Positions 1 to 24,720 are shown, counted from the first letter of the stretch. The stretch is DNA of 41,809 nucleotides from Nitrospina sp. (GCA_018664975.1 JABIXH010000253.1:1-41809); one strand, 5' to 3'. Translations and numbers: made by a program. Notes: a model not told the origin generated them from the sequence alone.

Positions 1-2
1 AG

Positions 3-1538
3 GTGCTTGATCTTCGAGACGCTCTGTTTCAGGCGCAGCAGTCTGCTCAGCAATATGCGCTTAAAATCAAGATATTAGAAGAAGCCATTGAAAAGTTGAA
101 ATCTCCGGCCCACCGCATTGGCACCATCCTGGGCCAGGGGGAAGAAGGATTGGTGCGTCTGGTTTCTGGAGGAACAGAATATCAGGCGGCCGTTGTACCG
201 GAACTGATGGAAAATGGTGAATTAAAAACCGGTGATCAGGTAGCCCTCAATGAAGGATTCGTGGTGATTGCCCGGTTATTGTTTCCCAATCAGGGGCCAT
301 TAGCCAAAATTTCCGGAAAACTGGCGGGTGGACAATGGCTGGTTCAAGCGGCGACCGGCAATACGGAAACGATTGTAATGGCCCGTGATGGTTTGGATGA
401 AATGCAATTGAAAGAGGGAGAAGAAATTTTTCTCGATTCCAGCCAAAGGGTTATTTTGGGCAAACTTCCAAAACGGGAGTCACACACTCTTATTGAAGAT
501 GACTATGAACAGGTGGAATGGTCCCAAGTAGGCGGGCAGGAAAAAGTTAAGGAAGAAGTGCGCAAAGTCCTTGAATACCCTTTGCTCCACAAAGAGATTC
601 TGAGCAAAATGGAATATCAGGTGCCCAAGGGGTTTTTGTTTTATGGTCCACCCGGTTGCGGCAAAACCCTCATTGGCAAAGCAATTCTCACCGAAGTGAT
701 CCGTGAACTTTCTGCACACGAAAAATCAGAACTACAAGGCCGATTCATTCATGTGAAAGGGCCGGAGATTCTCAATATGTGGCTTGGGGAATCGGAACGG
801 AAAATTCGTGAAATTTTCAAGAAGGCCCGGGACTATAAAGAGAAGGGCCAGATCCCTTTTATATTTATAGATGAAGCGGAATCAATTCTGGGAACTCGGC
901 AGGCTTGGCGAGGATCTAATATTAGTAACACGGTTGTACCCATGTTTTGTGCGGAGATGGATGGTATCCAATCCCTTCGCGAAACAGTGGTGATTTTGGC
1001 AACCAACCGACCCGACCTGATCGACCCGGCTGTTATCAGACCCGGCAGAATTGATAGAAAGATCAAAGTATCACGTCCTAATCGCGAAGAGTGTAAAGCC
1101 ATCTTGCGTGTTTATCTAAAAGAGGGACTACCCCGTGAGCATGAAGATTTTGATGCTATGGCAGAACCTTTTCTGGATCGGCTCTTTAATCGAAGTGCCG
1201 CTCAGGAAGTACTGGTGCTGACCTTGCGGAGCGGTGGCAACCGCAAAATGTACTGGGACGATTTTATTTCCGGAGCAACCATAGAGGGAATTATGAAGCG
1301 TGCCAAGGAAAGAGCCATCGAGAGGGCAATTAATGGTGGAACACTTTCCCTGACCGTGGACGATCTGATTGTTTCTCTGGAAACCGAATTTGAAGAAGGT
1401 AGTTTGCTTCCGGCCGAATCCAATCTGGAAGATTGGCTGCAACTTCTGGATATGGAGTCCAAGAATGTAGTGCGGGTTAGGCGGCCTAACGAATCGGACA
1501 AAGCGACCGAAAATACGATTCGCAGGTCTATTATATGA
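3..1538 (+). CDS. mpa: Proteasome-associated AAA+ ATPase (Mpa/ARC family), 5'-truncated by the window edge
   Basis: N-terminal coiled-coil (LKIKILEEAIEKLK) is followed by an OB-like region. Walker A is GPPGCGKT and Walker B is FIFIDEAES. The protein is colinear with actinobacterial Mpa through the C-terminal domain (MYWDDFISGATIEGIMKRAKERAIE; NLEDWLQLL). Its stop overlaps the next gene start (ATGA at 1535-1538). Confidence 0.9.
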   Translation: MLDLRDALFQAQQSAQQYALKIKILEEAIEKLKSPAHRIGTILGQGEEGLVRLVSGGTEYQAAVVPELMENGELKTGDQVALNEGFVVIARLLFPNQGPLAKISGKLAGGQWLVQAATGNTETIVMARDGLDEMQLKEGEEIFLDSSQRVILGKLPKRESHTLIEDDYEQVEWSQVGGQEKVKEEVRKVLEYPLLHKEILSKMEYQVPKGFLFYGPPGCGKTLIGKAILTEVIRELSAHEKSELQGRFIHVKGPEILNMWLGESERKIREIFKKARDYKEKGQIPFIFIDEAESILGTRQAWRGSNISNTVVPMFCAEMDGIQSLRETVVILATNRPDLIDPAVIRPGRIDRKIKVSRPNREECKAILRVYLKEGLPREHEDFDAMAEPFLDRLFNRSAAQEVLVLTLRSGGNRKMYWDDFISGATIEGIMKRAKERAIERAINGGTLSLTVDDLIVSLETEFEEGSLLPAESNLEDWLQLLDMESKNVVRVRRPNESDKATENTIRRSII

Positions 1539-3004
1539 GCGTTCCTCTTCTGGGAATGGAAACTGAGTATGGAATAATCCGGGAAGACCTGGAAAATTCT
1601 GACCCGGTAGAAGAATCGATGAAACTATTGCAGGCCTGCAAGCGCAAAAGTGTTTTCTGCAAATGGGCTTACTCGCAAGAAAACTCGCATCTGGATATGC
1701 GAGGGTTCCGTGTAGGATCTTTGGCCCAGGATGAAGAAGAAGATGCTTTTTGCGCAGAAGATAGAAAAAGATCCTATTCCTATCTGGATATGAAGTGCGA
1801 CCGGGTTTTAACAAATGGTGCCCGTTTCTATAATGACCATACCCACCCTGAATATAGTACTCCAGAGTGCCGGTCCGTATTGTCTCTGGTCGCTCACGAT
1901 GTGGCAGGGGAAAGGATTGTCGGAGAATGTGTTGCGACCCGTAATCAGGAACTGGGGGATAATTCGCTTCAAGTTTTCAAAAATAATACTGACTACAGCG
2001 GTCACAGCTATGGAACCCATGATAACTACCTGATCCCTCGCGAAATTCCGTTTGATAATGTGGTAAACAGGCTGACTTCTTTTCTCGTAACACGTCAGCT
2101 GTATGCTGGCGCAGGAAAAGTGGGATCTGAAAATTCAGCAACCGCAAACTTTCAGGGCTTACAGTTGGCCCAACGATCTGATTTTATCGAAACGCTTTTA
2201 AGCATTGAGACCATGACGAAGCGTCCCCTCATTAACACTCGGGACGAACCCCATGCGGTGAGTAATAAGTACCGGCGTTTGCATTTGATTCTTGGCGATG
2301 CGAATATGTCTGCTTATGCAACAGCTTTAAAGGTGGGAAGTACTTTACTGGTTTTAAATTTAATAGCTGGTGAAGAGAAACTTCCAGACTTGGAATTAGC
2401 GGACCCCGTGGCCGATGTGCTGAAAGTATCCATTGATAAGGATGCCGTTTTACAGCGCAAATCAGGAGGAACCATCACGGCTCAGGAAATTCAGGAAGGC
2501 TATCTGGAAGCAGTGGAAAAGGCCTTTGCCGGGAAGAATAAAGAGTGTATCTGGATCATTGAGGAATGGAAGAGGACGCTAAATGAACTCAGACACAGTC
2601 CGGAAAAACTTTCTGACCGTATTGACTGGGCCATTAAGGAAAAATTATTCACTGAGTTTATGGATTCAGAAGGCATGGGCTGGGAAGACCCCTGGTTAAA
2701 GAGCCTGGATTTGGAATACCATAATCTGGATGCTGATCGGGGTTTATATCGGGGACTCCAACAGGAGGGCGCGGTCTATTCCCTGCTCAGTGAGAAAGAA
2801 ATCGCCGATGCGGTGGAGTCTCCCCCCGAAGGGACACGGGCCCAGATAAGGGGTCAGGCGGTAGCGCAAGATGCAGAGACTATTAAAAGTATTCATTGGA
2901 CCGGAGTAGAATTTGCAAATGGAGAGGTCCTCGACTTGACCGGAGTTATCAGCTCCGAAGAGGTTGAAAATATTCTCCACTCCAGGAAACAACTTGCTTT
3001 GTAA
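1535..3004 (+). CDS. dop: Dop-like Pup/UBact deamidase-depupylase (PafA/Dop carboxylate-amine ligase fold)
   Basis: N-terminus is GMETEYGI and there is an NGARFYNDHTHPEYSTPEC motif (compare Dop VDHAHPEYSAPEC). It has 80 residues between the ETEYG glycine and NGAR, against 50 in the paralogue at 4797. This fits the Dop-specific loop insertion. Confidence 0.8.
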   Translation: MSVPLLGMETEYGIIREDLENSDPVEESMKLLQACKRKSVFCKWAYSQENSHLDMRGFRVGSLAQDEEEDAFCAEDRKRSYSYLDMKCDRVLTNGARFYNDHTHPEYSTPECRSVLSLVAHDVAGERIVGECVATRNQELGDNSLQVFKNNTDYSGHSYGTHDNYLIPREIPFDNVVNRLTSFLVTRQLYAGAGKVGSENSATANFQGLQLAQRSDFIETLLSIETMTKRPLINTRDEPHAVSNKYRRLHLILGDANMSAYATALKVGSTLLVLNLIAGEEKLPDLELADPVADVLKVSIDKDAVLQRKSGGTITAQEIQEGYLEAVEKAFAGKNKECIWIIEEWKRTLNELRHSPEKLSDRIDWAIKEKLFTEFMDSEGMGWEDPWLKSLDLEYHNLDADRGLYRGLQQEGAVYSLLSEKEIADAVESPPEGTRAQIRGQAVAQDAETIKSIHWTGVEFANGEVLDLTGVISSEEVENILHSRKQLAL

Positions 3005-3024
3005 GCAGAGAGGAATAGTAGAAT

Positions 3025-3762
3025 ATGTTTGAAGAGCCATATCGCTGGATGGAGGCGGTTTCCACCCGACACAGTTACGTTCAGGAAAAGCTGAAAATGG
3101 GTCAGCCCGTGTTGTCTGTTCCTTTCGATGAAGGGGTGCTGATAATGGGGTTTGCTCCTCAGCCGGGTAAGATATTCGAAATTTATGATCGTATCGCCTT
3201 GGGTGGTGTGGGACATCCCGCAGATGTAGAGCGGTTGCGCATGACTCTTCTGGAAATGGCGCATTTAGAAGGATTCAATCGCTCGGCTCAGGATGTGACT
3301 TTGGCCAGGCTCCTGCAGTTTGGAGTAGCTCCGGCACTCAAACAAAACTTTGAGGAAATTCAACGGGCACCCTATATTATTCGACTTCTGCTTATCGAAC
3401 TGGATGGCGAAGGCAAGCCAAACTTTTTCCGCATAAATTATGATGGGCATTGGGAAACTTTTAAAAAGGGAACGGTCATTGCCGGTAGTGAAAAAGTTAT
3501 GGATTGGATTCAAAATGAAATCCAAAAAATTCCCTTTGAAACGTATACGCTTGAAAAGGCTTTAGAGGAAACCTGTCGACTTTGGGTTGAAAGCAAAAAA
3601 CAAGAAGACGAGGAAAATAAAGATTCCCCCGGGACTTTGAAAGAGGCTTTCGACCAATGGTATCTTGAAGGAGCCATGTTGTTGGGTAAACTGGATCGAA
3701 GGGCAATATATAGGACGCTCACCAAGGAAGAGATTGAAAAGTTGAAATCATCGGTCGGTTGA
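3025..3762 (+). CDS. prcA: 20S proteasome alpha subunit
   Basis: KIFEIYDRIALGGVG and FFRINYDGHW match PrcA blocks (KISELYDRVGFAAAG; LYRITYDGS). No catalytic Thr or propeptide. It lies within the proteasome operon. Confidence 0.8.
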   Translation: MFEEPYRWMEAVSTRHSYVQEKLKMGQPVLSVPFDEGVLIMGFAPQPGKIFEIYDRIALGGVGHPADVERLRMTLLEMAHLEGFNRSAQDVTLARLLQFGVAPALKQNFEEIQRAPYIIRLLLIELDGEGKPNFFRINYDGHWETFKKGTVIAGSEKVMDWIQNEIQKIPFETYTLEKALEETCRLWVESKKQEDEENKDSPGTLKEAFDQWYLEGAMLLGKLDRRAIYRTLTKEEIEKLKSSVG

Positions 3763-3813
3763 ACCCCTCTTAATGATGAGCAGAAACCACCCGTCAAAAA
3801 AGGAGTTGATCTC

Positions 3814-3990
3814 ATGGAAATGAACGATCCCCTGAGAAGGGAAGAAAAAAAAGAAACCAATCCAGATCGCCATGATTCCGGTCCCACCAGCCCGGAACCT
3901 TCACGGCCGGGCAGGGATAATATTTTGAAACGGATGAAAAAGGTGGACCCTAAACAGACAGAAAAATACAAACAGAGAACCGGCCAATGA
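3814..3990 (+). CDS. Small ubiquitin-like/Pup-like modifier, UBact-type (58 aa, absent from the ORF track)
   Basis: Manual translation: MEMNDPLRREEKKETNPDRHDSGPTSPEPSRPGRDNILKRMKKVDPKQTEKYKQRTGQ*. SD AGGAG (3801-3805) lies 8 nt before the ATG. The stop overlaps the prcB start (ATGA, 3987-3990). The N-terminus is low-complexity and probably disordered; the C-terminus is basic and helical and ends in Gly-Gln. It sits between the proteasome subunit genes. Confidence 0.75.
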   Translation: MEMNDPLRREEKKETNPDRHDSGPTSPEPSRPGRDNILKRMKKVDPKQTEKYKQRTGQ

Positions 3991-4787
3991 GTTATCAATC
4001 TGATCCCAAAAGTTCGCCCGGAGATTTTTTTGATCTCCTGGAAAAATCCGGTTATCGCTGGCAGGCCCGGATCGATCTTTCTCGCGCGCAAAATGATATT
4101 ACCGTCACCCATGGAACAACCGTCCTGGCATTCCATTTTAAGGATGGAGTGATTGTTGCCGGTGACCGGCGAGCGACAGCGGGTAATAGCATAATGTATG
4201 AATATTGCGACAAGGTTATTCCCATTGATGATCATTCATTGATGGCTATTGCCGGAGTTCCCGCTACAGCCTTTGAGATGGCCCGTGTGCTCACTCATAA
4301 TTTTGAGTTTTTCCGGCGTTCGCAGATGCAATCCATGAGTGGAGAAGGGAAAATTCGCGCCTTATCGAGACTGTTGAAAGAAAATGTGGGTATGGCTGTT
4401 CAAGGGCTGGGAGTGGTTAGCCCTATATTTGCCACCTATGATTTGAAAACGCGAAAACCCTGCATACATTTTTACGATATGTTAGGTGCGGATTTTCAGA
4501 TTCGTACCCATACCTCGACAGGATCGGGTTCCCCTACTATCCGGGGAATTCTGGAACATGAAGACCTGTGGGGCGAAAAACCTCTGGCAGAGAGGTCTGA
4601 AAAAAATGCCGTCACCCTGGCCGTTCGGCTTTTGCAAACTGCGGCACAGTTTGATTCTGCAACCGGTAAAGCGCGTCCGGAGGAAGAAGTTTACCCCACT
4701 GTGGCATTGATAACTGAGGCGGGTTACCGGTTTATGAATGATCAGGAACTGGCAGAACTATGCAAGACATCGCTGCAACGGGGTTAA
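3987..4787 (+). CDS. prcB: 20S proteasome beta subunit (Ntn hydrolase with propeptide)
   Basis: ...VTHG|TTVLAFHFKDGVIVAGDRRAT shows the classical Gly-Thr autoprocessing site and catalytic Thr1. GSGS and DSATG blocks are colinear with actinobacterial PrcB. Confidence 0.9.
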   Translation: MSYQSDPKSSPGDFFDLLEKSGYRWQARIDLSRAQNDITVTHGTTVLAFHFKDGVIVAGDRRATAGNSIMYEYCDKVIPIDDHSLMAIAGVPATAFEMARVLTHNFEFFRRSQMQSMSGEGKIRALSRLLKENVGMAVQGLGVVSPIFATYDLKTRKPCIHFYDMLGADFQIRTHTSTGSGSPTIRGILEHEDLWGEKPLAERSEKNAVTLAVRLLQTAAQFDSATGKARPEEEVYPTVALITEAGYRFMNDQELAELCKTSLQRG

Positions 4788-4796
4788 GGTTCATCT

Positions 4797-6305
4797 ATGA
4801 AAAAGCGTATCTACGGCATCGAAACGGAATACGGACTTCTGGTCAAAAATGTTGAGGAATTTCCTTATGATCCCATGGAGATTGCCAACAAGATCAAGAA
4901 CCATGTTTTCTCAAAGAATCTTGGGGTGCTGGATCTTCACTATCGTGCCAACGATGAACCTCCTGGTAATGGAGGCTTCTTGCTGAACGGTGGACGCCTG
5001 TATCTGGATATGGGCCATTTGGAATACGCCTCACCGGAATGCTCCAACCTTGTTGACCTTGTCACTTTTGACCGTGCCGGAGATACACTGATCCAGGAGG
5101 CTGTAGAAGAGTTGGGCTGGGCGGATCATATTTCCTTCATTAAGAACAATGTAGACCTCGAAACCAACGCCACTTTTGGATGCCACGAGAATTATCTGGT
5201 TGGCAGAGGGTTTCCCTTCGATGAACAGAACAACCTGAAACTGCTGTCTTCATTTTTAACAACGCGACTCATCTATTGCGGTGCCGGTCGTATCGGCTCC
5301 TGTGACCCTCACCCGTTTAGGGATTGGGAAGGTGTCACGCCTGATGAAAATCAAGGCGATGAAGTGGACTTTCAGATTTCACAAAGGGCCGATCATATTC
5401 CCAACGAATTTTACCGGTGGGTTCAGTATAACCGGGCCATCGTCAACACGCGCGATGAACCCTTATCGGACCCGAGCAAATACCGGCGAATACATCTTTT
5501 AGTTGGCGACTCTACTATGAGTGAGTTTGCGACTGCCATGAAGATGGGGACGACAACGCTCATGCTGGAAATCATGCAATTAGGTGTCGCTAAACGGGAA
5601 TGGATTCTCGCCGATTCGGTTCAGTCCATGCGATCTATTTCGCGTGACCCGGATTTCAAATGGCATGTGAAACTGGCTTCGGGAAATTCTTCCAGCGCTC
5701 TGGAATTGCAATGGGATATTTTGAACACCTGCAAACAACACCTGGGCGGGAAAGATCGCGAGACCGATTGGATTTTGGAGGGTTGGGAATCCGTCTTAAC
5801 CGATTTGCCTAAAGGCCCGGAAGCGGTCATCGGTAGAGTAGACTGGGCCAGTAAATACTGGATGCTTAACGAATTTAAAAATGAAGAAAATCTGGAATGG
5901 AGTGACCCCTGGCTAAAAAGCCTGGATTTGGAATATCATAATTTAAATAAGGAATCGGGCCTGTTCTGGGGACTGGAGGCCAACGGAGAGGGTTACAGAA
6001 AAACCACCGATGAGGCTGTGAACTTTTCAAAGGTTAATCCTCCTCGAGGGACTCGGGCGCATGGTCGAGGAGAACTCGTCAAAAGACTTATGGACCAGCA
6101 TTCTCACATGGGTTATCTCATAGACTGGATCGGGTTTCGCTTGGGCAAAACAGATGAGCCGTTTCTCATGCTGGATCCGTTCATTTCCTACAAGGAAGAA
6201 ATAATAAGTCACCTGACTCAATTTGATCCTCTACCTAATAAGGAAAGCGGGGAAGGTAAGGATGTAGGAAACCCTGGCGGAGAAGGGAAAAAACCTTATG
6301 AGTGA
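4797..6305 (+). CDS. pafA: PafA-like modifier-protein ligase
   Basis: GIETEYGL and NGGRLYLDMGHLEYASPEC (compare PafA [20 protein letters not shown]). It lacks the Dop loop. YRRIHLLVGDS and WLKSLDLEYHNL blocks are shared with the paralogue at 1535. Confidence 0.8.
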   Translation: MKKRIYGIETEYGLLVKNVEEFPYDPMEIANKIKNHVFSKNLGVLDLHYRANDEPPGNGGFLLNGGRLYLDMGHLEYASPECSNLVDLVTFDRAGDTLIQEAVEELGWADHISFIKNNVDLETNATFGCHENYLVGRGFPFDEQNNLKLLSSFLTTRLIYCGAGRIGSCDPHPFRDWEGVTPDENQGDEVDFQISQRADHIPNEFYRWVQYNRAIVNTRDEPLSDPSKYRRIHLLVGDSTMSEFATAMKMGTTTLMLEIMQLGVAKREWILADSVQSMRSISRDPDFKWHVKLASGNSSSALELQWDILNTCKQHLGGKDRETDWILEGWESVLTDLPKGPEAVIGRVDWASKYWMLNEFKNEENLEWSDPWLKSLDLEYHNLNKESGLFWGLEANGEGYRKTTDEAVNFSKVNPPRGTRAHGRGELVKRLMDQHSHMGYLIDWIGFRLGKTDEPFLMLDPFISYKEEIISHLTQFDPLPNKESGEGKDVGNPGGEGKKPYE

Positions 6306-6642
6306 TTGTCTTTTTTGCAAAATTAGTGAAGGTAGTATTCCTTCCGATAAGGTTTATGAATCGGACACGTTGTTTGCAATTAATGATATCAATCCACAGG
6401 CCCCTACGCATATACTAATCATTCCCCGTATTCATCAGTCCACTCTGCTTGATGTCGAGGAAAAAGACCATACGATGATGGGTTCGGTAATCAGTGTGGC
6501 CAACCAACTGGCTAAGGAAAGAGGACTCGATAAATCAGGATTCCGGCTGGTGGTCAATTGCGGAGCAGGTGCCGGGCAATCTGTATTCCATATTCATTTT
6601 CATTTAATAGGTGGGCGTGCCTTGAACTGGCCGCCGGGTTAG
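6298..6642 (+). CDS. HIT-family (histidine triad) nucleotide hydrolase
   Basis: CLFCKI N-terminus and the histidine triad HIHFHLIGG. The start overlaps the pafA stop by 8 nt. Confidence 0.85.
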   Translation: MSDCLFCKISEGSIPSDKVYESDTLFAINDINPQAPTHILIIPRIHQSTLLDVEEKDHTMMGSVISVANQLAKERGLDKSGFRLVVNCGAGAGQSVFHIHFHLIGGRALNWPPG

Positions 6643-6646
6643 AAAG

Positions 6647-7660
6647 ATGGTTACCGCAGAAAAACTCTACGAAAAACTAAAGGATATTCAGGTGGGCAAT
6701 CCGGTTTGCCGGTTTACTCGCGAGAATTGTGAATTGTTGCTCCCCACAATTCAAAGGATTGAAGATCTCAAGCGCGAAAAGAATGCCATCATTCTGGTTC
6801 ATAATTATGTCGCGCCGCAAATTTACTATAGCGTGGCCGATTTCACCGGCGATTCATATGGACTGTCAAAAAAAGCGAAAGAATCCAATGCCGATGTCAT
6901 CGTTTTTTCAGCCGTTCGCTTTATGGCAGAAACCGCCAAAATTCTTAATCCGGGCAAAATGGTGCTGGACCCTAATCCGAATGGCGGATGTTCTCTCGCC
7001 GATGGGATAACGGCAAATGATGTAATCAAGCTTCGTAAAGAATTTCCCGATCATACATTCGTTTGCTATATCAATACGACTGCGGAGGTAAAAGCCCAGT
7101 GTGATGTATGTGTAACCTCCTCAAATGTTTATGGCATTATTGAAAAAATCCCCAACGACAAAATTTATTTTTTGCCCGATCGGCTCATGGGCGAAAATGT
7201 TATTGCCCATCTTAAAACTCGTGGCGTGTATAAGGATATTCAACTTTGGGATGGCACCTGCTATGTTCATGAGGAATACCAGCCCGAAAGCATTGATCAG
7301 GTGCGGAATAATTTTGAAGATGTGGAGATTCTCGTTCATCCCGAGTGCAATTCTTCAGTCGTGGACAAGGCGGATTATGTAGGAAGCACCAGTCAAATGC
7401 TCGACCATGTGCGTGAGTCGAAGAGAGATACATTCTTTTTGCTCACGGAGTGTGGGTTGACCGGTGTTTTGCAATCGGAGTTTCCAGAAAAAACATTTGC
7501 AGGAAGCTGTACCCTTTGCAAATACATGAAATCCAATTCTCTGGAAGACATATTAAACGTCCTGGAAAATCCTGGTCCAAATAGCATCGTTGAAATCAAC
7601 CCGGAAACTCAGAAACGTGCTCTTCAATGCGTGGATCGCATGTTTGAATACACCTCTTGA
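6647..7660 (+). CDS. nadA: Quinolinate synthase
   Basis: VHNYVAPQI..ADFTGDS, RFMAETAKIL and VHPEC motifs, with a typical length of about 335 aa. Confidence 0.85.
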   Translation: MVTAEKLYEKLKDIQVGNPVCRFTRENCELLLPTIQRIEDLKREKNAIILVHNYVAPQIYYSVADFTGDSYGLSKKAKESNADVIVFSAVRFMAETAKILNPGKMVLDPNPNGGCSLADGITANDVIKLRKEFPDHTFVCYINTTAEVKAQCDVCVTSSNVYGIIEKIPNDKIYFLPDRLMGENVIAHLKTRGVYKDIQLWDGTCYVHEEYQPESIDQVRNNFEDVEILVHPECNSSVVDKADYVGSTSQMLDHVRESKRDTFFLLTECGLTGVLQSEFPEKTFAGSCTLCKYMKSNSLEDILNVLENPGPNSIVEINPETQKRALQCVDRMFEYTS

Positions 7661-7816
7661 ATCAATAAGTCAAATAGTACTCCAAAACCTCTTGATTTTT
7701 CAGTTTCTACAACCCTTTTTAAATAAAAGCTTATGCCATTTTTTACCCTTGCCGTTAAGGATATACAGGGCATGGAATAGCCCGAATTAAATATCTTTTC
7801 GGTGGAGGATGACTCA

Positions 7817-8290
7817 ATGATTGGAGACAGTGGAGGACTCGGTTCAACCATTCTCAATAGTTTTACCCAGAAGGCTTTTCAGCAGGTTCAAAAGGATGAC
7901 ACCAACCGCTCGGGTGGACTGGATCTCAGCGAAATTCAGAAGAAATCAGATGAGACCGGAAGTGGTAAAGACCTGATAGATAATTTTGATTCCATCGATA
8001 CGGACCAAAGCGGAGAATTATCAGCTACGGAATTGATTGCTTTTCGAGCAAAGTCTACGGAAGGGCGAGAAGAGCTTTTTAACCAATTAAAAAATATTTT
8101 TGACCAATCAGGAATTTCCAGTAACAGCATTACTGATTTCTTGAGTGGCCAGACAGGCCAGCAAAATGATTTAACTTCCCTCCTGCAATCGAGCACAGAT
8201 CTGGATGCCTTGATTGAATCTAGAGTTCAGGAGATTCTGACTAGTACCGGTGAGACAGCCTCTCTCTTAAACTTCGATACCACTATTTGA
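7817..8290 (+). CDS. Small EF-hand calcium-binding protein
   Basis: Two canonical 12-residue EF loops are present, DTNRSGGLDLSE and DTDQSGELSATE. The track start is GTG at 7802. ATG 7817 is preferred because SD GGAGGA (7804-7809) lies 7 nt upstream. Confidence 0.55.
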   Translation: MIGDSGGLGSTILNSFTQKAFQQVQKDDTNRSGGLDLSEIQKKSDETGSGKDLIDNFDSIDTDQSGELSATELIAFRAKSTEGREELFNQLKNIFDQSGISSNSITDFLSGQTGQQNDLTSLLQSSTDLDALIESRVQEILTSTGETASLLNFDTTI

Positions 8291-8353
8291 TGATTATTTT
8301 CTTCAGGTAAATTAGGGGGGAGTTATAGCCATAAGGGAAAATGCGCGGTGGTA

Positions 8354-9286
8354 TTAAACCATCCGATAGCCCCCATTTTTCTCTTTTAGGGCGACCAACA
8401 GGGTGCCTTGAAATTCCTTATTGGTACCTTTTTTCATAACCATCTCATGAGGCACACTCCACATTCCTGTAGCAGTCATCATAAAGTTCATGCTATTGCA
8501 GAAATCGTAGAGATTGGACTGTTCATTTACTTTCAGAGATATTTCCATATCAGACGTAGCTCTGGGGCCAACGCGCCGGGTCAAAATATGAGCCCGGGTT
8601 GAATTACTGAGTACACCATCATAAAATTCATTAAAGTCATGACCAATCAGGTCAAACACATCAAACCCTATAAAGCTGACGGCTTTATTGGCAAAATTAA
8701 TTTTACCTTCCGGGTCGGTCTGGATAATCAGGTCTGATACCGAGTCAATAACCTTGCGGTATTTTTCACGGCTGTTCCTGATCTCCTGATAACCGTCCTC
8801 AATGATTTCGAGATCACTCCGGTTTCTGGCTGAGACAGTTTTTAAAATTTCCCATACCACCTTGGGGTTGGAAGCAAAATACTTAAAGAAAGTATCTTTT
8901 TCTATTTCCAGCACTTCAGAATTGGCAAGGGCTCGGACACTGGCTGCCCGGGGTTTGGATTCCACCAACGCCATTTCACCTACAAAATCCCCGGTTCCAC
9001 GAACCGCGATTTGTTTATGCCTTTTATAAACCTCCATTTTTCCGGAAAGAATGATGTACATGGTTTCCTGAAAAGCGCCTTCAGAAAATAGAACCTGGCC
9101 TTTTTTCAGAAAAATTTGTTTTCCGGCTTCAAAAACCTGCTCCAATTCCATATCCCCAAATAAACTGGAGAAGGCGGTTTGTTTCAGGGCTTCTAAATCT
9201 TTAGAAAGATCCATATCACTAAAACCATCTGTAATAATTTTTAATGGTGTTAATGTTAATCTATCTGCTAAATTATTTAAATGCAA
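8354..9286 (-). CDS. Cyclic-nucleotide-binding domain protein with C-terminal PAS-like domain
   Basis: CAP-effector-domain signature FSEGAFQETMYIILSGKMEV...GDFVGEMALVESKPRAASVRA, followed by a PAS-like segment (VSDLIIQTDPEGKINFANKA). No HTH or enzymatic output domain is recognisable. The track start is TTG; the first ATG would be at 9214. Confidence 0.7.
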   Translation of the reverse strand: MHLNNLADRLTLTPLKIITDGFSDMDLSKDLEALKQTAFSSLFGDMELEQVFEAGKQIFLKKGQVLFSEGAFQETMYIILSGKMEVYKRHKQIAVRGTGDFVGEMALVESKPRAASVRALANSEVLEIEKDTFFKYFASNPKVVWEILKTVSARNRSDLEIIEDGYQEIRNSREKYRKVIDSVSDLIIQTDPEGKINFANKAVSFIGFDVFDLIGHDFNEFYDGVLSNSTRAHILTRRVGPRATSDMEISLKVNEQSNLYDFCNSMNFMMTATGMWSVPHEMVMKKGTNKEFQGTLLVALKEKNGGYRMV

Positions 9287-14879: not shown

Positions 14880-15563
14880 CTAGAATTCAGCTTCTTCTGT
14901 TTTACTTCCATGGCGGATTATTTCTCCGGTGACCAGATAAATCACGTCTTCGGCGATATTGGTAGCATGGTCGGCCATTCGCTCAAGATACCGTGAGGCG
15001 GAAAGAAGCTGGATATAACTGTTTAAATTATTGGAGTCCTTTTTAATGGCTTGTGCAACGCAACCATACATTTCCCGATTCAAATCATCCACGGCATCAT
15101 CATCTTCACAAACTTTGCGGGCAAGTTTCTCATCCCGATTCACCAGGGAATCCAGTGAGCGTTTTAGCATGGAACGAACCTTCTTAGCCATATTCTGCAA
15201 ATCGAAAGGTAGTTCTACTTTTGCTTCTGTGGAAAGGTAAACCGCTCGCTCTGCAATGTTTACGGAAAGATCGCCGATACGTTCCAAATCATTATTAATT
15301 TTTAAGATCGCAATGATCAAGCGCAAGTCGTTGGCCACTGGCTGGTGAAGAGCGAGAATTTTAAGACATTCTTCCTCCACATAAACTTCCCGCTGATCAA
15401 TTTCGTAATCCGCTTCGATGACCCTCTTTGCAAGATCAGAATCTCGTTGGGTCAAGGATTGAACTGCAAGTCGGGCACTTTCTTCAACATCAGTTCCAAG
15501 CGAAAGTATTAAACGTTTGAGTTCATCAATAGCTTTTTCAAGATGAATGGCATGTCGTGACAT
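14880..15563 (-). CDS. phoU: Phosphate signalling complex protein PhoU
   Basis: Two PhoU repeats (IDQREVYVEEECLKILALHQPVANDLR; ERIGDLSVNIAE / ERMADHATNIAE), 227 aa, immediately after pstB. Confidence 0.9.
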   Translation of the reverse strand: MSRHAIHLEKAIDELKRLILSLGTDVEESARLAVQSLTQRDSDLAKRVIEADYEIDQREVYVEEECLKILALHQPVANDLRLIIAILKINNDLERIGDLSVNIAERAVYLSTEAKVELPFDLQNMAKKVRSMLKRSLDSLVNRDEKLARKVCEDDDAVDDLNREMYGCVAQAIKKDSNNLNSYIQLLSASRYLERMADHATNIAEDVIYLVTGEIIRHGSKTEEAEF

Positions 15564-15573
15564 TAAAAACCCC

Positions 15574-16428
15574 TTAACCGAATCTGCCGGTTATATAGTC
15601 TTCCGTTTTGGGTACGGAAGGATTGGTGAATAATTTTTCGGTCGGACCAAACTCAATCAATTCTCCCAGCAACAGGAATCCTGTAAAATCTGCAACCCGG
15701 GCGGCTTGTTGCATATTGTGTGTCACAATCACAATGGTGAAATGCTCTTTCAATCCTACCATTAACTCCTCAATTCTTGCGGTAGCAATTGGGTCCAGGG
15801 CCGAGCAAGGCTCATCCATTAAAAGCACTTCTGGTTCTACTGCAATGGCCCGAGCGATACAAAGTCTTTGTTGTTGACCTCCAGACAAGGCCAGAGCGCT
15901 GGAGCCCAGCCGGTCCTTGACTTCATCCCAAAGAGCCACCGACTTCAGGCTTTTTTCTACAATTTCATGCAACCTGTTTTTATCTTTCATCCCGTGGATC
16001 CGAGGACCATAGGCCACATTTTCAAAAATAGTCTTTGGAAACGGGTTGAATTTTTGAAATACCATGCCCACATTTTTCCTTAGTTCGCTCACATCCAAGG
16101 CGGGGTCCATGGTATTCAACCCACCAATTTGTATTTTTCCCTCCATGCGGGTGCCTTCTACCAGATCATTCATACGATTCAGGCATCTAAGAAGGGTGGA
16201 CTTGCCACAGCCCGAGGGACCAATAAATGAAGTGATCTTCCTCTCAGGAAGAGTCATATTGATATTTTTAAGCGCCTGGGTCTCACCGTAGAAAAAGTCC
16301 ACATTTTCAATTTTGATCATCAAGCTTTGATCATTGTTAGAATCTGTAACCTTCATTCCAATGGCATTTGAAGATGAATAGTCAATGTTAGTACGGTCTA
16401 CTTTATTTTTAATTTTTATTTCAGCCAT
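15574..16428 (-). CDS. pstB: Phosphate ABC transporter ATP-binding protein
   Basis: Walker [13 protein letters not shown] signature LSGGQQQRL, Walker [12 protein letters not shown]. The PstB-typical C-terminus is [10 protein letters not shown]. Confidence 0.95.
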
Positions 16429-16449
16429 TATAATTTACCCGATTTCATA

Positions 16450-18081
16450 CTAAACCGCTGAAGCAGTAAGTTGTTTTCTGAGACGGTTTCTCAAGTATAT
16501 GGCCGCCATGTTTAAAAGAATGATCATCAAAAGGAGCAATAAGGTCGTGGCAAAAACCATGGGCCGAGCCGCATCAACATTTGGCGATTGGAACCCGACA
16601 TCATAAATATGAAAACCCAGGTGCATAAATTTTCTTTCCAGATGCAGAAAAGGCCACAAACCATCAATAGGAAGAGAGGGCGCCAGTTTTACTACCCCGG
16701 TGATCATTAAAGGTGCAACCTCGCCAGCGGCTCTTGCCATAGCCAGGATGAGTCCTGTTAAAACGGAGGGCATGACGGCGGGCAGTACAACCCTCCAGGT
16801 AGTTTCAAACTTGGTGGCTCCTACAGCGAGAGAGGCTTCTCGGATTCCTTTTGGAACTGCGGCTAAACCTTCTTCGGTCGATACAATCACGACCGGAACG
16901 GTGAGTAAAGCCATGGTGAGTGATGCCCATAAAATCCCTCCGGTTCCGAAGGTTGGGGTTGGAAGTGACTCTGAAAAAAATATCTGATCAATAGAGCCTC
17001 CAATAAAATAAATGAAAAAACCAACTCCAAAAACTCCAATGACAATAGATGGAATGCCCGCCAGATTGTTAACGGCGATTCGTACAATGCTGACCAAGGT
17101 TCCTTGCTTGGCATATTCCCGCAAATAAAATGCGGCCAAAACACCTAAGGGAGTTGCCAAAAGGCTCATCATCAATACCATAAGAATAGTGCCGTAAATG
17201 GCAGGAAACACCCCTCCCTCTGTATTGGCTTCCCGAGGATCATCCCAGAAAAAATTATTAATTCCTTTCAGGAGGTATGCAATTTTATCCGGCAGGGAAA
17301 AAGCGTTGGGGTTGTTGATATCCAGCATTTGTGAAAGCGGAAGAGTTTTTTCTCGACCTTCTAGGGTTTGCAAAACAATTTTCGCGGTTTGCGCAGTGCG
17401 CAGTTGGTGGAGCTTGTTCTCCAGCATGTCATAATGAGATTGCAGGATGGGAACTTCACTTTTCAATGCTTCTACTTCTGCCCCTTGAGTGACACCTTTC
17501 AGGTTGAGTTTTCTCAGCTTTAAACGAACCCGTTCTAACTTGTAGTTGATGGCTCCAATTTCCTTTTTCTCAATTTTTTCAATATCTTTATTTTTTTTTG
17601 TGACACCCGGTAAAAGGTTCCGAGCAACCTTCAACCCTTCCACGGTACCTTTGGCAATGACTTGATCTCCATCCAGAACCTCCTTGATATATCCAAAGAA
17701 AACCCCCCATTCTCTTCGTGTTACAGCAACTACATCTTTTGGAGTTTGAGAAATTTTTATACTCTCTTCATCGATCCAGACGAAATCTGAATTATAAATA
17801 TCTCTATTGGCCTTTTTAATCTGTATTCGATATAGCTCAGGCTTCCCATTGGCTGGCCCAAAGTCTGGGATTACTTCCCGAGCCATTTGAATTCCCAATA
17901 CACGCGATCCATCTTTAAGGTCCAGGATTTTTAACTCCCCCGGCCAGAAAGAACCCATTGCATTGACAACAATAGCCATGAGGAGTGCGGCTGTCATGAT
18001 GAGAGAAAGCGCAAGCCCTGCTCCCGTCAACCAGATGAACAGGTCTCCTCGTTTCCAGACTTTTTTTCCTTTATCAAACAT
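16450..18081 (-). CDS. pstA: Phosphate ABC transporter permease PstA, long form with an extracytoplasmic insertion of about 240 aa
   Basis: The C-terminal half is a standard PstA permease core (EASLAVGATKFETTWRVVLP). Residues about 47-289, between TM1 and the core, include a coiled-coil-like stretch. Confidence 0.9.
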   Translation of the reverse strand: MFDKGKKVWKRGDLFIWLTGAGLALSLIMTAALLMAIVVNAMGSFWPGELKILDLKDGSRVLGIQMAREVIPDFGPANGKPELYRIQIKKANRDIYNSDFVWIDEESIKISQTPKDVVAVTRREWGVFFGYIKEVLDGDQVIAKGTVEGLKVARNLLPGVTKKNKDIEKIEKKEIGAINYKLERVRLKLRKLNLKGVTQGAEVEALKSEVPILQSHYDMLENKLHQLRTAQTAKIVLQTLEGREKTLPLSQMLDINNPNAFSLPDKIAYLLKGINNFFWDDPREANTEGGVFPAIYGTILMVLMMSLLATPLGVLAAFYLREYAKQGTLVSIVRIAVNNLAGIPSIVIGVFGVGFFIYFIGGSIDQIFFSESLPTPTFGTGGILWASLTMALLTVPVVIVSTEEGLAAVPKGIREASLAVGATKFETTWRVVLPAVMPSVLTGLILAMARAAGEVAPLMITGVVKLAPSLPIDGLWPFLHLERKFMHLGFHIYDVGFQSPNVDAARPMVFATTLLLLLMIILLNMAAIYLRNRLRKQLTASAV

Positions 18082-18087
18082 TTAACC

Positions 18088-20343
18088 TCATAGGCCTTGA
18101 TAGCGTTTGCGTAATCTCAGACGAACCAGTTCCGCCAGAGTGTTAACAAAAAATGTCATGGTAAATAACAGGAATGCCGCAAGAAAAAGAATACGAAACA
18201 GAGTTCCTCCCTCAGGAGCTTCCGGGAGTTCTACGGCAATATTTGCGGACAAGGCGCGAAAACCATTAAATATGCTCCACTCCATAACTGGGGTGTTTCC
18301 TGTCGCCATGAGCACAATCATGGTTTCACCAATGGCTCGTCCGAACCCGATCATGATCGCAGAAAAAATTCCTGGACTGGCAGTTGGCAGAATCACATTG
18401 AGAGCGGTCTGCCAGGGTGTCGCTCCTAAAGCGAGTGAAGAAGCCTTAAGATGTTCCGGGACATTGGATAGTGAATCCTCGGCTATTGTGAATATGATAG
18501 GAATGACTGCAAACCCCATAGCCAAACCGACAACCAACGCGTTTCTCTGGTCATAGGTAACATCAAATACCTGCTTCAGCCAAACTCGGTGGTCCCCTAA
18601 AAGGACGGAGGATTCTATCAAGGTCCCTGCGTAAAATGACAAGACCCCTCCAAGAAAAGTAATGACGATCAATAAATAAATCTCCCTGCCACCTTTAGCC
18701 ATAAACTGTAAAGCGGGAAATTTTTCATAAGCCAGTAAAGTTGTAACTATCATGATAGTTACAATTATCGGCATGATCATGATTCCTGGGAGAAATGTCT
18801 CTACCTGTGGGGCAATCACCAGAGCCGCAAAAAATCCAAGTACCACACTGGGAAGTGCGGCCATGGTTTCTATTGTTGGTTTAATTATTCTTTTCAAATC
18901 AGGCTGCATGAATTGGGATACGTAAAAGGAAGCGAACAGAGCTAGAGGAACAGCAAAACACATGGCATAGAGTGTTCCTTTTAATGTCCCAAACATTAGT
19001 GGCACAAGGCTGAATTTAGATTCGAATTCATCCGTTCCACCCGTGGATTGCCAAACATAAGTGGGTTCTTCATATCCCTCATACCAGATTTCACCGAATA
19101 ACCCTTCCAGTGAAATTTGCGGGTAGGGATTCTCCATTTTCCAGAGATACAATATCCCTTGAGTATCGGCTGTCAATATTCCATCAAACTTGGGGGCTAT
19201 AATCGCTGTTTTGTAAGCGGTTTTTTCCTCTGCGGGGAGTTGAATCTGGGTTTCCCCTGTTGTCCCATAATGCAAACGAATCATTTCATTAGATCCAGTC
19301 AGAAACCCTTTATTGCGAAGAGAAAAACTGAAAAATTTTGCCGGAGTTTTATGTGACGAAAAGTTATATATTTTCTTTAGAGAAAATATTTTAGTTTCAG
19401 ATTTTGCCAATTGAAAGGAACTTACCCTCCCATCTGATTCTGTTACTATCAAAGTGTAGCCACCGAGGGTAAAACCTAAATGTTCCACAGCTATTCCGGG
19501 ATTGCTGGTTGCTCCGATCAATTGGGCCGAGTTTTGAGTGTTTTCCAGGTCAGCCCGAAAGATCTGGCCAAATGAAGTTCCTATTAAAAGACTGTTATAA
19601 GCTTCATCAAAAATCATTGATGTGATTTTGCCTTCTACCGGAACAGTAATCGATTCTTGTGATTGGGTTCGTCGAATCGTCCCCATCATGGTTTTACGTA
19701 AACGTACTTTAATGAGAGAGACCTGACCTGGCCCAGACTGGGCGGCAATCTGATATCCTTGCTCATTTTTAATATGGGTCAATAAAGTAACGGGCGAACC
19801 ATCGGGACGAACCTGAACCGGAGATTCAGCGCTTAGATGTGGTTCAATAGAACGTTGACTATCAGAATTATAAACCGGGCGAAACTCAATGTTTATGGGA
19901 TAAACCCTGCCATCGGAAAGACCCAATACCGGAAAATTTTTTAAAGAAGGGGATACACCTGTAACGTGCGCTGATCCCCATTCAGGTAATTCTGGTTTGG
20001 ACTCAAATTTTTTATCGCTTAATGAATAAAAACGTACGCCATCTGCTTCCACTGTGTAACCCTTATCCTGATAAGGATCTAAACCAATTGCCAGTGGAAC
20101 GCTCTGTGCTTTGAATTTTGAAACCAGGGAAATAGATGGTTTTTTAAATAGAGGATAAATTTCTGAGATAATTACAAAAAGGATAGCGAAAATGGATGCG
20201 ATGATGATCCAACCGCCGGCTGTGACAACATTACGGGCTATACCATCTGCAAATTGCCGTTGGAGTAAACTTTTGCCGAAAAAAGCCCGGCCGGGTCTTG
20301 AAGAACCTTGGCCGGGCAGAATAGATTTTGCTTTATCGTCCAT
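18088..20343 (-). CDS. pstC: Phosphate ABC transporter permease PstC, very long form (751 aa) with an extracytoplasmic domain of about 380 aa
   Basis: The C-terminal 300 aa or so form a PstC permease core (EDSLSNVPEHLKASSLALGATPWQT). Residues about 67-444 lie between TM1 and TM2. Confidence 0.85.
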   Translation of the reverse strand: MDDKAKSILPGQGSSRPGRAFFGKSLLQRQFADGIARNVVTAGGWIIIASIFAILFVIISEIYPLFKKPSISLVSKFKAQSVPLAIGLDPYQDKGYTVEADGVRFYSLSDKKFESKPELPEWGSAHVTGVSPSLKNFPVLGLSDGRVYPINIEFRPVYNSDSQRSIEPHLSAESPVQVRPDGSPVTLLTHIKNEQGYQIAAQSGPGQVSLIKVRLRKTMMGTIRRTQSQESITVPVEGKITSMIFDEAYNSLLIGTSFGQIFRADLENTQNSAQLIGATSNPGIAVEHLGFTLGGYTLIVTESDGRVSSFQLAKSETKIFSLKKIYNFSSHKTPAKFFSFSLRNKGFLTGSNEMIRLHYGTTGETQIQLPAEEKTAYKTAIIAPKFDGILTADTQGILYLWKMENPYPQISLEGLFGEIWYEGYEEPTYVWQSTGGTDEFESKFSLVPLMFGTLKGTLYAMCFAVPLALFASFYVSQFMQPDLKRIIKPTIETMAALPSVVLGFFAALVIAPQVETFLPGIMIMPIIVTIMIVTTLLAYEKFPALQFMAKGGREIYLLIVITFLGGVLSFYAGTLIESSVLLGDHRVWLKQVFDVTYDQRNALVVGLAMGFAVIPIIFTIAEDSLSNVPEHLKASSLALGATPWQTALNVILPTASPGIFSAIMIGFGRAIGETMIVLMATGNTPVMEWSIFNGFRALSANIAVELPEAPEGGTLFRILFLAAFLLFTMTFFVNTLAELVRLRLRKRYQGL

Positions 20344-20347
20344 TTAA

Positions 20348-21322
20348 TTAATTGGTCATGACTGCTGAGATTTTTTGTAAATCCGCATCGGTCACAGCCT
20401 TGGCAATCGGAAAGTAACCGCCCTTAACCACCACTTGCTGGCCTTCTTTGGAAAGGATCATTTTGACAAACTCCTGAGTCAACGGATCAAGAGATTTACC
20501 GGGAGCCTTGTTGACATAGATGTATAGAAATCGAGCCAGAGGATAATCGCCGGTGAGGGCATTCTCTGCTGAGGGTTCAACAAAGCTAGAGCCACTTTGT
20601 GCCAATGGCAGAGCGCGTACGCTGGCAGTTTTATAACCGATACCACTGTATCCCGCTGAGAAGGGATCAACACTTACACTCTGAACTACCGAAGCAGAGC
20701 CAGGCTGTTCTTTCACTTCATCTTTGTAGTCGCCTTTTTTCATGACCAGCTTTTTGAAAAAGCCATAAGTACCGGAAGCTGAATTCCTTCCATAGACACT
20801 AATGGGCCTGTCTGCCCAGTTCCCCGTAACCCCCAGGTCGCCCCAGGTTTCTACAGCTTTGTGGCCTCTTCTGCGACTTTTGGAAAAAAGAGCATCCACT
20901 TGTTCCATATTTAATCCCTGAATCGGATTGTCCTTGTTGACGAAAACCGCAAGGGCATCGACTGCAACACGAACCGGGGTGGGTTTGTAGCCGAACTTGG
21001 ATTCAAAAGCATCCAGTTCTTTTTGCTTCATCGCGCGAGACATGGGACCCAATTGCGCGGTTGCTGAAATTAAGGCTGGCGGGGCAGTTGAGGAACCCTT
21101 GCCCTCCACCTGAATATTAACGTTTGGATAAAATTGCTTAAACTTTTCACTCCACAATGTCATCAGGTTATTCAAAGTATCTGATCCCACACTGGAAAGA
21201 TTTCCACTGACTCCGCCCTGCTTACTGTAGTCGGTGAGTTGAGGGTCCACCTGAACCGGTCCTCCAAAAGCGTTATTAGTCCAGACCAAAACCAGTAAAA
21301 TTATTCCTATTTTTTTGTACAT
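20348..21322 (-). CDS. pstS: Periplasmic phosphate-binding protein
   Basis: [18 protein letters not shown] and [10 protein letters not shown] phosphate-binding blocks. The track start 21355 is probably an over-extension. ATG 21322 has SD AAGGAG (21329-21334) 6 nt upstream and yields the signal peptide [20 protein letters not shown]. Confidence 0.9.
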
Positions 21323-21400
21323 TGCCTGCTCCTTAAAAGATTGCTGTTGATTCATAGCAACAATCTAAACATTTATTATTAGATTTATAACTGCTCAGTA

Positions 21401-21417
21401 TTAGGATTGTGTTAGGA
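21401..21417 (-). promoter_or_regulatory. Candidate Pho box upstream of pstS (two 11-bp-phased hexamers)
   Basis: TTAGGAttgtgTTAGGA on the + strand (TCCTAA in gene orientation). Exactly 11 nt separate it from a -10-like TATAAA (complement of 21384-21389). It lies about 80 nt upstream of the pstS ATG. Confidence 0.4.
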
Positions 21418-21440
21418 GTGGAAAATTAAGAAAAGGAGTG

Positions 21441-21490
21441 AGAAGAAAAAAAACCGTTGACCTGACTTTAAAGCCAGACCAACGGTTTTT
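21441..21490 (-). terminator. Rho-independent terminator after the porin gene
   Basis: AACCGTTG (21452-21459) pairs with CAACGGTT (21480-21487), with further partial pairing inside. On the - strand the hairpin is followed by TTTTTTTTCTTCT. Confidence 0.55.
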
Positions 21491-21536
21491 TATAGACTCA
21501 ATCTTGGAGGAGGTTGAATGCTAAAACAATGACTTA

Positions 21537-22697: not shown

Positions 22698-22762
22698 TGT
22701 AATCTCCTCCTTCAAAAATCAATAATTTTGACAATTTCATGAGGAATAATACAAATATCAAA

Positions 22763-22790
22763 TTAGGAAATTGTTAGGACTGGATTAGGG
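22763..22790 (-). promoter_or_regulatory. Candidate Pho box upstream of the porin gene (three 11-bp-phased hexamers)
   Basis: TTAGGAaattgTTAGGActggaTTAGGG. Exactly 11 nt separate it from a -10-like TATTAT (complement of 22746-22751). This is the same geometry as at pstS. Confidence 0.45.
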
Positions 22791-22852
22791 TTTTAAAGGT
22801 CGGGGGGGGATATAAAAATTATTCTATTGATATACGTAGATTTTTGCTGAGC

Positions 22853-24628: not shown

Positions 24629-24720
24629 AGCTTTTGATTTGCGAACTTAACCTGTATTTTCTCACCTGTAAAATAGGGGGAATGAAACAACTAAAAACCT
24701 GTTCAGAATTTAACCCGGTT

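Follow-up and report, generated by a model that had tools for sequence, protein, structure and literature searches.

The ubiquitin-like modifier UBact was reportedly named in 2017 by Lehmann et al. in a paper on gram-negative bacteria. In GenBank the name 'ubiquitin-like protein UBact' is given to close homologues of the modifier studied here, including a protein of the cultured Nitrospina watsonii. Reports of Pup-type systems in bacteria other than Actinobacteria go back to 2008 (PMC2588565). Nitrospinae are listed among the carriers of Pup, Dop and PafA, and an ancient transfer from Actinobacteria to Nitrospirae and Nitrospinae has been proposed (PMC7947786). The order of the Pup genes has been termed 'rigidly conserved' (PMC3511204), and pupylation loci lacking proteasome genes occur in other bacteria (PMC2588565, PMC3511204). 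Here we describe a UBact-proteasome gene cluster located at positions 1-6305 of a DNA stretch of 41,809 nucleotides from Nitrospina sp. (GCA_018664975.1 JABIXH010000253.1:1-41809), the whole of which we refer to as the window. The UBact-proteasome system is already known, and so is its host group as a carrier. The preliminary description of this DNA therefore implied more novelty than there is, given that UBact has Pfam and NCBIfam models and a GenBank name and that Nitrospinae are listed as carriers. Based on sequence comparisons, we consider it very probable that the region is a UBact-proteasome operon of an uncultured marine member of the Nitrospinaceae, a diderm counterpart of the Pup-proteasome system, and that its order, with the 20S alpha gene ahead of the modifier, is a derived one, for which duplication and loss are the most likely route.

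The cluster consists of six co-oriented, tightly packed genes:

1..1538, + strand: mpa/arc, proteasomal AAA+ unfoldase (open reading frame 3-1538); 5'-truncated at the window edge, with 511 of the 538 codons
1535..3004, + strand: dop-like gene, predicted UBact deamidase/deconjugase (Pup_ligase PF03136, TIGR03688); its start overlaps the mpa stop
3025..3762, + strand: prcA-like gene, divergent 20S alpha subunit (TIGR03691, Pfam Proteasome and PDB matches); upstream of the modifier
3814..3990, + strand: UBact, 58-residue ubiquitin-like modifier (PF20513 and NF033388, both above cut-offs)
3987..4787, + strand: prcB-like gene, 20S beta subunit with a 43-residue propeptide (TIGR03690, Pfam Proteasome); its start overlaps the UBact stop
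4797..6305, + strand: pafA-like gene, predicted UBact-protein ligase (Pup_ligase, TIGR03686, alignment to PafA structures)

The order is thus mpa-dop-alpha-UBact-beta-pafA, followed by genes for a HIT-family hydrolase and NadA. Start and stop codons overlap as ATGA at 1535-1538 (mpa/dop) and 3987-3990 (UBact/beta), as read directly in the sequence, and the remaining gaps are 20 nucleotides (nt) between dop and alpha, 51 nt between alpha and UBact and 9 nt between beta and pafA. The overlaps at 1535 and 3987 and the gaps of 9-51 nt agree with the preliminary description. Its assignment of the six families also stands, since matches to profile hidden Markov models (HMMs) and PDB structures point to the proteasome, Dop and PafA families and not to HslV or generic AAA proteins. 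Only its term 'complete' has to be qualified: all six genes are present, but the 5' end of mpa is cut by the window edge. The mpa reading frame is open through the left edge, and the GTG at position 3 lies inside the gene rather than starting it. Full-length Mpa has 538 residues both in close relatives and on contigs encoding an identical Dop protein, so that 27 codons and the promoter region lie outside the window. Promoter-like and terminator-like sites within 1-8400 were no commoner than in shuffled sequence and hence are uninformative on transcript boundaries, and scans of the whole window with Rfam models and for tRNAs gave no matches.

The unfoldase combines the Pfam domain AAA with Prot_ATP_ID_OB_N and Prot_ATP_ID_OB_C, both of them OB domains of proteasomal ATPases. 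Its best NCBIfam model is TIGR03689 pup_AAA (381 bits, below the cut-off of 505), and its residues 13-494 align in a single stretch with residues 78-586 of Mycobacterium tuberculosis Mpa (7px9), displaying the same coiled-coil/OB/AAA architecture. The two members of the Pup_ligase family can be told apart to differing degrees. The Dop-like protein scores 499 bits with Pup_ligase PF03136 and 417 bits with the TIGR03688 Dop model (below the cut-off of 492), compared to 355 bits with the PafA model. It aligns from residue 5 to the Dop structures 9cku and 4b0r, through the region of the Dop loop (KWAYSQENSHLDMRGF versus RWDYEVESPLRDARGF), whereas its alignment to PafA structures begins only at residue 91. 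It also exceeds its PafA-like paralogue by 30 residues between the ETEYG and NGARFY motifs, which corresponds to the Dop-loop insertion. The PafA-like protein does not have this insertion, scores 417 bits with Pup_ligase and 319 bits with the TIGR03686 PafA model versus 304 bits with the Dop model, and PafA structures are the only ones to which it can be aligned from end to end (residues 2-470). Its gene closes the cluster in every UBact locus that we examined.

The two 20S subunits differ in how strongly they match known families. The only NCBIfam match of alpha is TIGR03691 20S_bact_alpha (59.1 bits, model positions 14-227 of 229, below the cut-off of 139); the Pfam Proteasome family is matched with 33.4 bits (cut-off 22.4), and the best PDB matches are the alpha subunits of Rhodococcus and M. 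tuberculosis. Alpha has no Thr nucleophile at the position equivalent to Thr1 of beta. For beta, the best model is TIGR03690 20S_bact_beta with 161.8 bits (below the cut-off of 191.9), HslV models reaching 20-27 bits, and the Pfam Proteasome family is matched with 101 bits (cut-off 22.4). When aligned to Rhodococcus PrcB (2h6j), beta has a propeptide ending in Gly and an intact active site (...VTHG/TTVLAF, the slash marking the cleavage site, with Thr44, Asp60 and Lys76 corresponding to Thr1, Asp17 and Lys33), as the preliminary description had noted for the Gly-Thr site, and its GSGS and DSATG motifs are likewise intact. As a side observation, most Nitrospira betas (L038-L081 in our set of loci, described below) have A/TT (Ala-Thr-Thr) at the predicted propeptide cleavage site and not Gly-Thr-Thr.

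The modifier is UBact rather than Pup, as judged by its family matches. This short ORF (open reading frame), embedded among the Mpa, Dop, PafA and 20S genes between alpha and beta, matches PF20513 UBact with 66.8 bits (cut-off 27.8) and NF033388 ubiq_like_UBact with 66.2 bits (cut-off 35). UBact was the sole Pfam family at E <= 10, with no match to Pup, and no PDB entry, Pup-containing ones included, matched at the same threshold. The protein ends in ...KQRTGQ, that is, in TGQ and not in the Pup-type GG[Q/E], and each of 74 related UBact sequences has QRTGQ or QRTGE as its last residues. The motif R-[T/S]-G-[E/Q], which Lehmann et al. are said to have given for the UBact C-terminus in 2017, fits the protein of the window. 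Across Nitrospinota and Nitrospira hardly any variation is seen in the last 25 residues, and the C-terminal half is strongly basic (isoelectric point, pI, 10.7). We also observed that the terminal residue depends on the phylum: it is Gln in 32 of 34 Nitrospinota loci and Glu in 33 of 40 Nitrospira loci. Consequently, the need for a deamidation step differs between the two phyla.

All of the nearest homologues of Dop and UBact are proteins of Nitrospina, Nitrospinaceae or Nitrospinota, and the host is an uncultured, marine, diderm member of the Nitrospinaceae (phylum Nitrospinota). Nitrospinaceae are the main marine nitrite oxidisers. The diderm nature of the host, already deduced in the preliminary description from an outer-membrane porin, is borne out both by these homologues and by the porin itself, a Porin_5 protein encoded at 21537-22715 (- strand) that terminates in ...KFKF and thus in Phe. 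Other contents of the window fit a diderm host as well: a pst/phoU cluster, two-component systems, aromatic amino-acid synthesis, ribosomal protein S1 and a c-type cytochrome.

The closest described relatives of the locus are the UBact clusters of N. watsonii and Nitrospira. They have the same six families, a near-identical UBact tail (...KRMKKVDPKQ.EKY[KR]QRTG[QE]) and an Mpa tail of the [S/Q]-I-I type, and those of N. watsonii and other Nitrospinota are followed by HIT and nadA as in the window. The difference lies in the central order, which is UBact-beta-alpha there and alpha-UBact-beta in the window. The junctions differ accordingly: N. watsonii has a tight dop/UBact overlap, beta abutting alpha and an alpha/pafA junction, whereas the new junctions in the window span 20, 51 and 9 nt. 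Compared to the Pup system of M. tuberculosis and other Actinobacteria, the window encodes a homologous ATPase, a Dop/PafA pair in which the Dop-like member has the Dop loop, and a 20S core with Thr1, Asp17 and Lys33. The Gly-Gln end of the tag is also common to both, implying deamidation before ligation. On the other hand, UBact has no detectable similarity to Pup, ends in RTGQ instead of GGQ and has a basic C-terminal half, and Mpa lacks GQYL. In addition, all genes form one compact operon in a diderm host, and their order breaks the 'rigidly conserved' pattern (PMC3511204). The archaeal PAN-20S system has in common with the window an unfoldase with OB-fold and AAA parts and a Thr1 20S core. 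However, the matches to PAN and to archaeal beta are weaker, with scores far lower than those of the bacterial models, and the window Mpa has no HbYX tail. Archaeal tagging relies on E1-like activation of SAMP, in contrast to the Dop/PafA chemistry expected here.

To see how widespread the order is, we used an alignment of diverse alpha homologues (a 23-sequence subset) to fetch loci from collections holding one genome per species, and annotated the loci with the window proteins. The loci inspected are the best 80 of at least 576 confirmed; all belong to Nitrospinota or Nitrospirota. Altogether 98 related loci were sampled, the order being readable in 90. We call canonical the order mpa-dop-UBact-beta-alpha-pafA (corresponding to the actinobacterial Dop-UBact-beta-alpha-PafA) wherever it could be read. 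The distribution was as follows:

Closest Nitrospinaceae (alpha at least 74% identical; L001 and sixteen of the fetched loci, together L001-L017), 17 loci: mpa-dop-alpha-UBact-beta-pafA-HIT-nadA, the order of the window
Other Nitrospinota (alpha 57-66% identical), among them Ca. Nitromaritima and an isolate, 20 loci: canonical
Nitrospira-type, 44 loci: canonical
Nitrospina watsonii chromosome, 1 locus: canonical
Clusters from a metagenome scan (distant alpha group), 8 loci with readable order: canonical

The window-type order is therefore found in 17 loci and the canonical one in 73. The 17 loci come from independent assemblies, which include the closed chromosomes L005 (OZ253496.1) and L017 (OZ253582.1), and the alpha-first order is also present on contigs encoding an identical Dop protein. 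In trees of concatenated Mpa, Dop and PafA (1444 columns) the alpha-first group was monophyletic in 200 of 200 bootstraps and nested among Nitrospinota having the canonical order. By these sequence-derived criteria, the alpha-first order evolved within this one clade by rearrangement of the ancestral mpa-dop-UBact-beta-alpha-pafA. The preliminary description was thus right that the order differs from the actinobacterial one, but the synteny comparison shows that, among the loci sampled, this is a property of one Nitrospinaceae subclade and not a general trait of diderms or of UBact systems. The ratio of nonsynonymous to synonymous substitution rates (dN/dS), computed against L004, is 0.04-0.13 for all six window genes (0.085 for alpha), pointing to strong purifying selection and, together with the preserved beta motifs, to functional genes. 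It is unlikely that the alpha-first order changes how the system works.

A probable origin of the order can be traced in the sister subclade, which we designate A2, the subclade of the window being A1. Between dop and alpha, five A2 genomes (L008-L011 and L013) have an additional beta gene, beta', giving the order dop-beta'-alpha-UBact-beta-pafA:

L009:9116-9916: beta'; also in L008, L010 and L013, and fragmented in L011:736-1512

Beta' retains G/TT, Asp17 and Lys33, whereas GSGS is changed to GAGAG and DSATG to DNKQEN (the regions of Ser129 and Asp166-Gly170). Its identity is 53-54% with the betas of Nitrospinota, whichever order class they belong to, and 43% with those of Nitrospira, which indicates that it arose within Nitrospinota. 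In L009, L010 and L013 the gene is intact and under purifying selection (dN/dS 0.04-0.08), and in L011 it is frameshifted. Further stages of decay are seen elsewhere: the 208-nt dop-alpha spacer of L014 (3086-3293) contains the first ~33 codons and the 3' end of beta', a relic of an internal deletion that represents gene loss in progress, and L015 retains only a 3' piece. Moreover, in L009, L010, L011 and L013 the alpha start is immediately preceded by a 76-nt repeat of the beta' 3' end (in L009, 9844-9919 and 9927-10000, with ~80% identity between the copies). The ATGA junction of UBact and beta is identical in both gene orders, so that these two genes appear to have moved as one block. In A1, only 20 nt separate dop from alpha. 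Taken together, these observations suggest that the UBact-beta block was duplicated and that gene loss then produced the new order. According to this scheme, beta'-alpha would be the original adjacent pair. The UBact-beta block would have been copied to the 3' side of alpha, or UBact-beta-alpha duplicated in tandem, after which the upstream UBact would have been lost. Beta' would have been lost later, completely so in A1, the lineage of the window.

A number of points weigh against the view that the window holds a UBact-proteasome operon reordered by duplication and loss. Searches of the A1 dop-alpha and beta-pafA gaps with tblastn and blastn turned up no remains of beta', a first UBact or a second alpha. 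In the neighbour-joining tree of betas, the branch leading to beta' is long and poorly resolved and leaves from the base of the Nitrospinota betas, and only two sites are informative on the timing of the beta' duplication. The sampling of gene orders spans two phyla among named genomes. With respect to function, none of the five NCBIfam equivalog models for the enzymes and subunits reaches its curated cut-off, which makes the window proteins distant relatives of the actinobacterial ones and not their equivalogs. The PafA-like enzyme barely separates PafA from Dop, the scores being 319 versus 304 bits with the NCBIfam models and 225 (PafA) versus 233 (Dop) with PDB structures. Since Mpa has no GQYL, its docking to the 20S core may differ. 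Finally, in the literature searched we found no experimental work on any UBact system, only sequence analysis.

The strongest competitor concerns the origin of the order. The order could have resulted from a simple swap of adjacent blocks, alpha being placed ahead of UBact-beta without any duplication, with the beta' of A2 being a later and separate duplication of beta. A single such event yields exactly the three new junctions that are observed (dop/alpha, alpha/UBact and beta/pafA), no remnant of a duplicated gene, beta' included, is seen in A1, and neither the tree nor the two informative sites dates the beta' duplication. However, beta' sits at the ancestral position of beta, directly 5' of alpha, with its own 3'-end repeat abutting alpha. 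It also shares just 53% of its residues with the beta of the same locus, as opposed to at least 77% identity between orthologous A1 and A2 betas, so that a recent origin within A2 would need an extreme acceleration. The swap, moreover, needs two events, whereas one duplication explains both the order and beta'. We therefore regard the swap as rather unlikely, although it deserves to be taken seriously, and retain duplication followed by loss as the preferred explanation.

The presence of two betas has a parallel in Rhodococcus. The 20S proteasome of Rhodococcus erythropolis has two alpha and two beta paralogues. Its structures are the closest solved ones for both the alpha and the beta of the window (1q5q and 2h6j, the best PDB matches), and L009, L010 and L013 of A2 likewise have two betas, while the window has a single alpha and a single beta. 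At the same time, Rhodococcus is an actinobacterium using the Pup tag, unlike the host of the window, and the sister-clade beta' is altered at GSGS and DSATG. It is tempting to go one step further and to view the alpha-first order as the footprint of a UBact-beta duplication, the two-beta stage of which would persist in L009, L010 and L013 as a mixed beta ring, with the Mpa of UBact systems in general docking by means of a conserved [S/Q]-I-I tail in place of GQYL or HbYX and with recognition of a basic tag instead of an acidic one. We put this broader proposal forward only tentatively, giving it slightly less than an even chance. If true, some diderm bacteria would naturally build a proteasome whose beta ring is mixed.

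By analogy with M. tuberculosis, from whose system each of the following steps is inferred, the putative operon might work as follows. UBact would be made with a C-terminal Gln (...QRTGQ), which the Dop-like enzyme, having the Dop-loop insertion, would deamidate to Glu; the same enzyme may later remove the tag. The PafA-like enzyme would activate the gamma-carboxylate of this Glu with ATP and link UBact to lysines of substrates. The Mpa/ARC hexamer would bind the tag through its N-terminal coiled coils and thread the substrate through its OB and AAA rings into an alpha7-beta7-beta7-alpha7 20S particle, in which beta would have processed itself between Gly43 and Thr44, exposing Thr1.

One step at which the analogy may not hold is the docking of Mpa. 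M. tuberculosis Mpa requires its C-terminal GQYL for docking and gate opening (PMC8142254). The window Mpa ends in ...RRSII (window positions 1506-1538), without GQYL. In 66 related loci the tail conforms to [R/N/S][S/Q][I/V/M][I/V] (RSII, RSVI or NQII, the last in most Nitrospira), GQYL being found in none. Conservation of a [S/Q]-[I/V]-[I/V] tail suggests a role in docking, as far as this can be read from the sequences. Independently of this question, an Mpa tail of the form [S/Q]-[I/V/M]-[I/V] is kept across two phyla (Mpa genes of L001-L081).

A second alternative to the degradative pathway is that UBact tagging is mainly regulatory and non-degradative, or that the 20S particle works largely independently of the tag, without the delivery of tagged proteins by Mpa that takes place in mycobacteria. 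Consistent with this are the RSII tail (NQII in Nitrospira) in place of the M. tuberculosis GQYL, the basic C-terminal half of UBact with its lack of sequence similarity to Pup, and the above-mentioned pupylation loci without proteasome genes in other bacteria (PMC2588565, PMC3511204). Nevertheless, in Nitrospinota as in Nitrospira the six genes remain in tight linkage with translational overlaps and evolve under purifying selection, Mpa aligns with its M. tuberculosis counterpart in the coiled-coil, OB, AAA and C-terminal regions, and the Mpa tail is conserved in a way that suggests docking. We thus consider a mainly non-degradative or tag-independent system improbable and prefer a UBact-proteasome pathway in which tagged substrates would be degraded.

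Much less probable still is that the region represents a recently transferred actinobacterial Pup-proteasome operon or contamination of the bin with actinobacterial DNA. Admittedly, the gene content equals that of the Pup system, and an ancient transfer from Actinobacteria has been proposed (PMC7947786). Yet the tag has no match to Pup HMMs and ends in RTGQ, not GGQ, and all of the enzymes score below the cut-offs of the actinobacterial equivalogs. The guanine and cytosine (GC) content of the cluster, 0.46-0.48, does not fall outside that found elsewhere in the window, its flanks carry genes that are also conserved in N. watsonii and on closed Nitrospinales chromosomes, and the porin and other diderm genes are on the same contig. 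Actinobacterial contamination was accordingly rejected on the combined grounds of the tag, the sub-cut-off enzymes, GC, synteny and the diderm genes. The weakest alternative, that the genes belong to unrelated families (HslV- or Anbu-type peptidases, generic AAA proteins) or that the order is an assembly artefact, has next to no probability and was rejected too, because, weak as the proteasome matches of alpha are (33 bits in Pfam, 59 bits with TIGR03691), the best PDB match of alpha is a bacterial 20S alpha, beta scores 162 bits with 20S_bact_beta versus 20-27 with HslV, Mpa has both OB domains, and the same order recurs in 17 independent assemblies, including two closed chromosomes.

Downstream of pafA, the co-oriented string continues with two more genes, nadA probably being the last:

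6298..6642, + strand: HIT-family hydrolase (Pfam HIT, 88 bits); 8-nt overlap with pafA
6647..7660, + strand: nadA, quinolinate synthase (Pfam NadA, 352 bits); 4 nt after the HIT gene

The HIT-nadA pair is found 3' of pafA in most Nitrospinota loci of both orders in which the downstream region is present, and in no Nitrospira locus. The spacing between pafA and HIT is 100-230 nt in Nitrospinota genomes of canonical order, compared to the 8-nt overlap in the window. Beyond nadA, an EF-hand calcium-binding-like protein (7802-8290, 162 residues) adjoins a protein with cyclic-nucleotide-binding and PAS domains (8354-9286), and genes of both kinds also lie 3' of nadA on a Joint Genome Institute (JGI) contig encoding an identical Dop protein. 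Further along, 14880-25410 (- strand) is a phosphate-uptake region comprising phoU, pstB, two unusually long permeases (543 and 751 residues), a phosphate-binding protein, the Porin_5 porin and a PhoR/PhoB-like two-component pair.

In the metagenome contigs of our set (L083-L147) we also came across a family of stand-alone proteins similar to proteasome alpha, about 220 residues long and 25-30% identical to the window alpha (for instance, L124:8001-8687 and L106:8001-8681). In most of the long contigs there is no Mpa, Dop, UBact, beta or PafA gene within 8 kilobases of these genes. In two contigs the alpha-like gene is preceded by rplK, a gene for a protein with a 5'-nucleotidase C-terminal domain and a peptidase M28 gene.

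None of the above affects classification, as the window contains a known system in a known host group. Its value lies rather in what it adds to that system. UBact has been described from sequence alone, and experiments could start from any well-annotated locus. With regard to gene order, the window is a clean one-clade exception, and the second beta, the frameshifted copy and the deletion relic in related genomes show how an operon can be reordered without loss of function. The absence of GQYL from Mpa in all of the UBact systems sampled bears on how bacterial proteasomal ATPases dock to the core particle. Regulated proteolysis in the marine nitrite-oxidising Nitrospinaceae, in turn, is of ecological interest.

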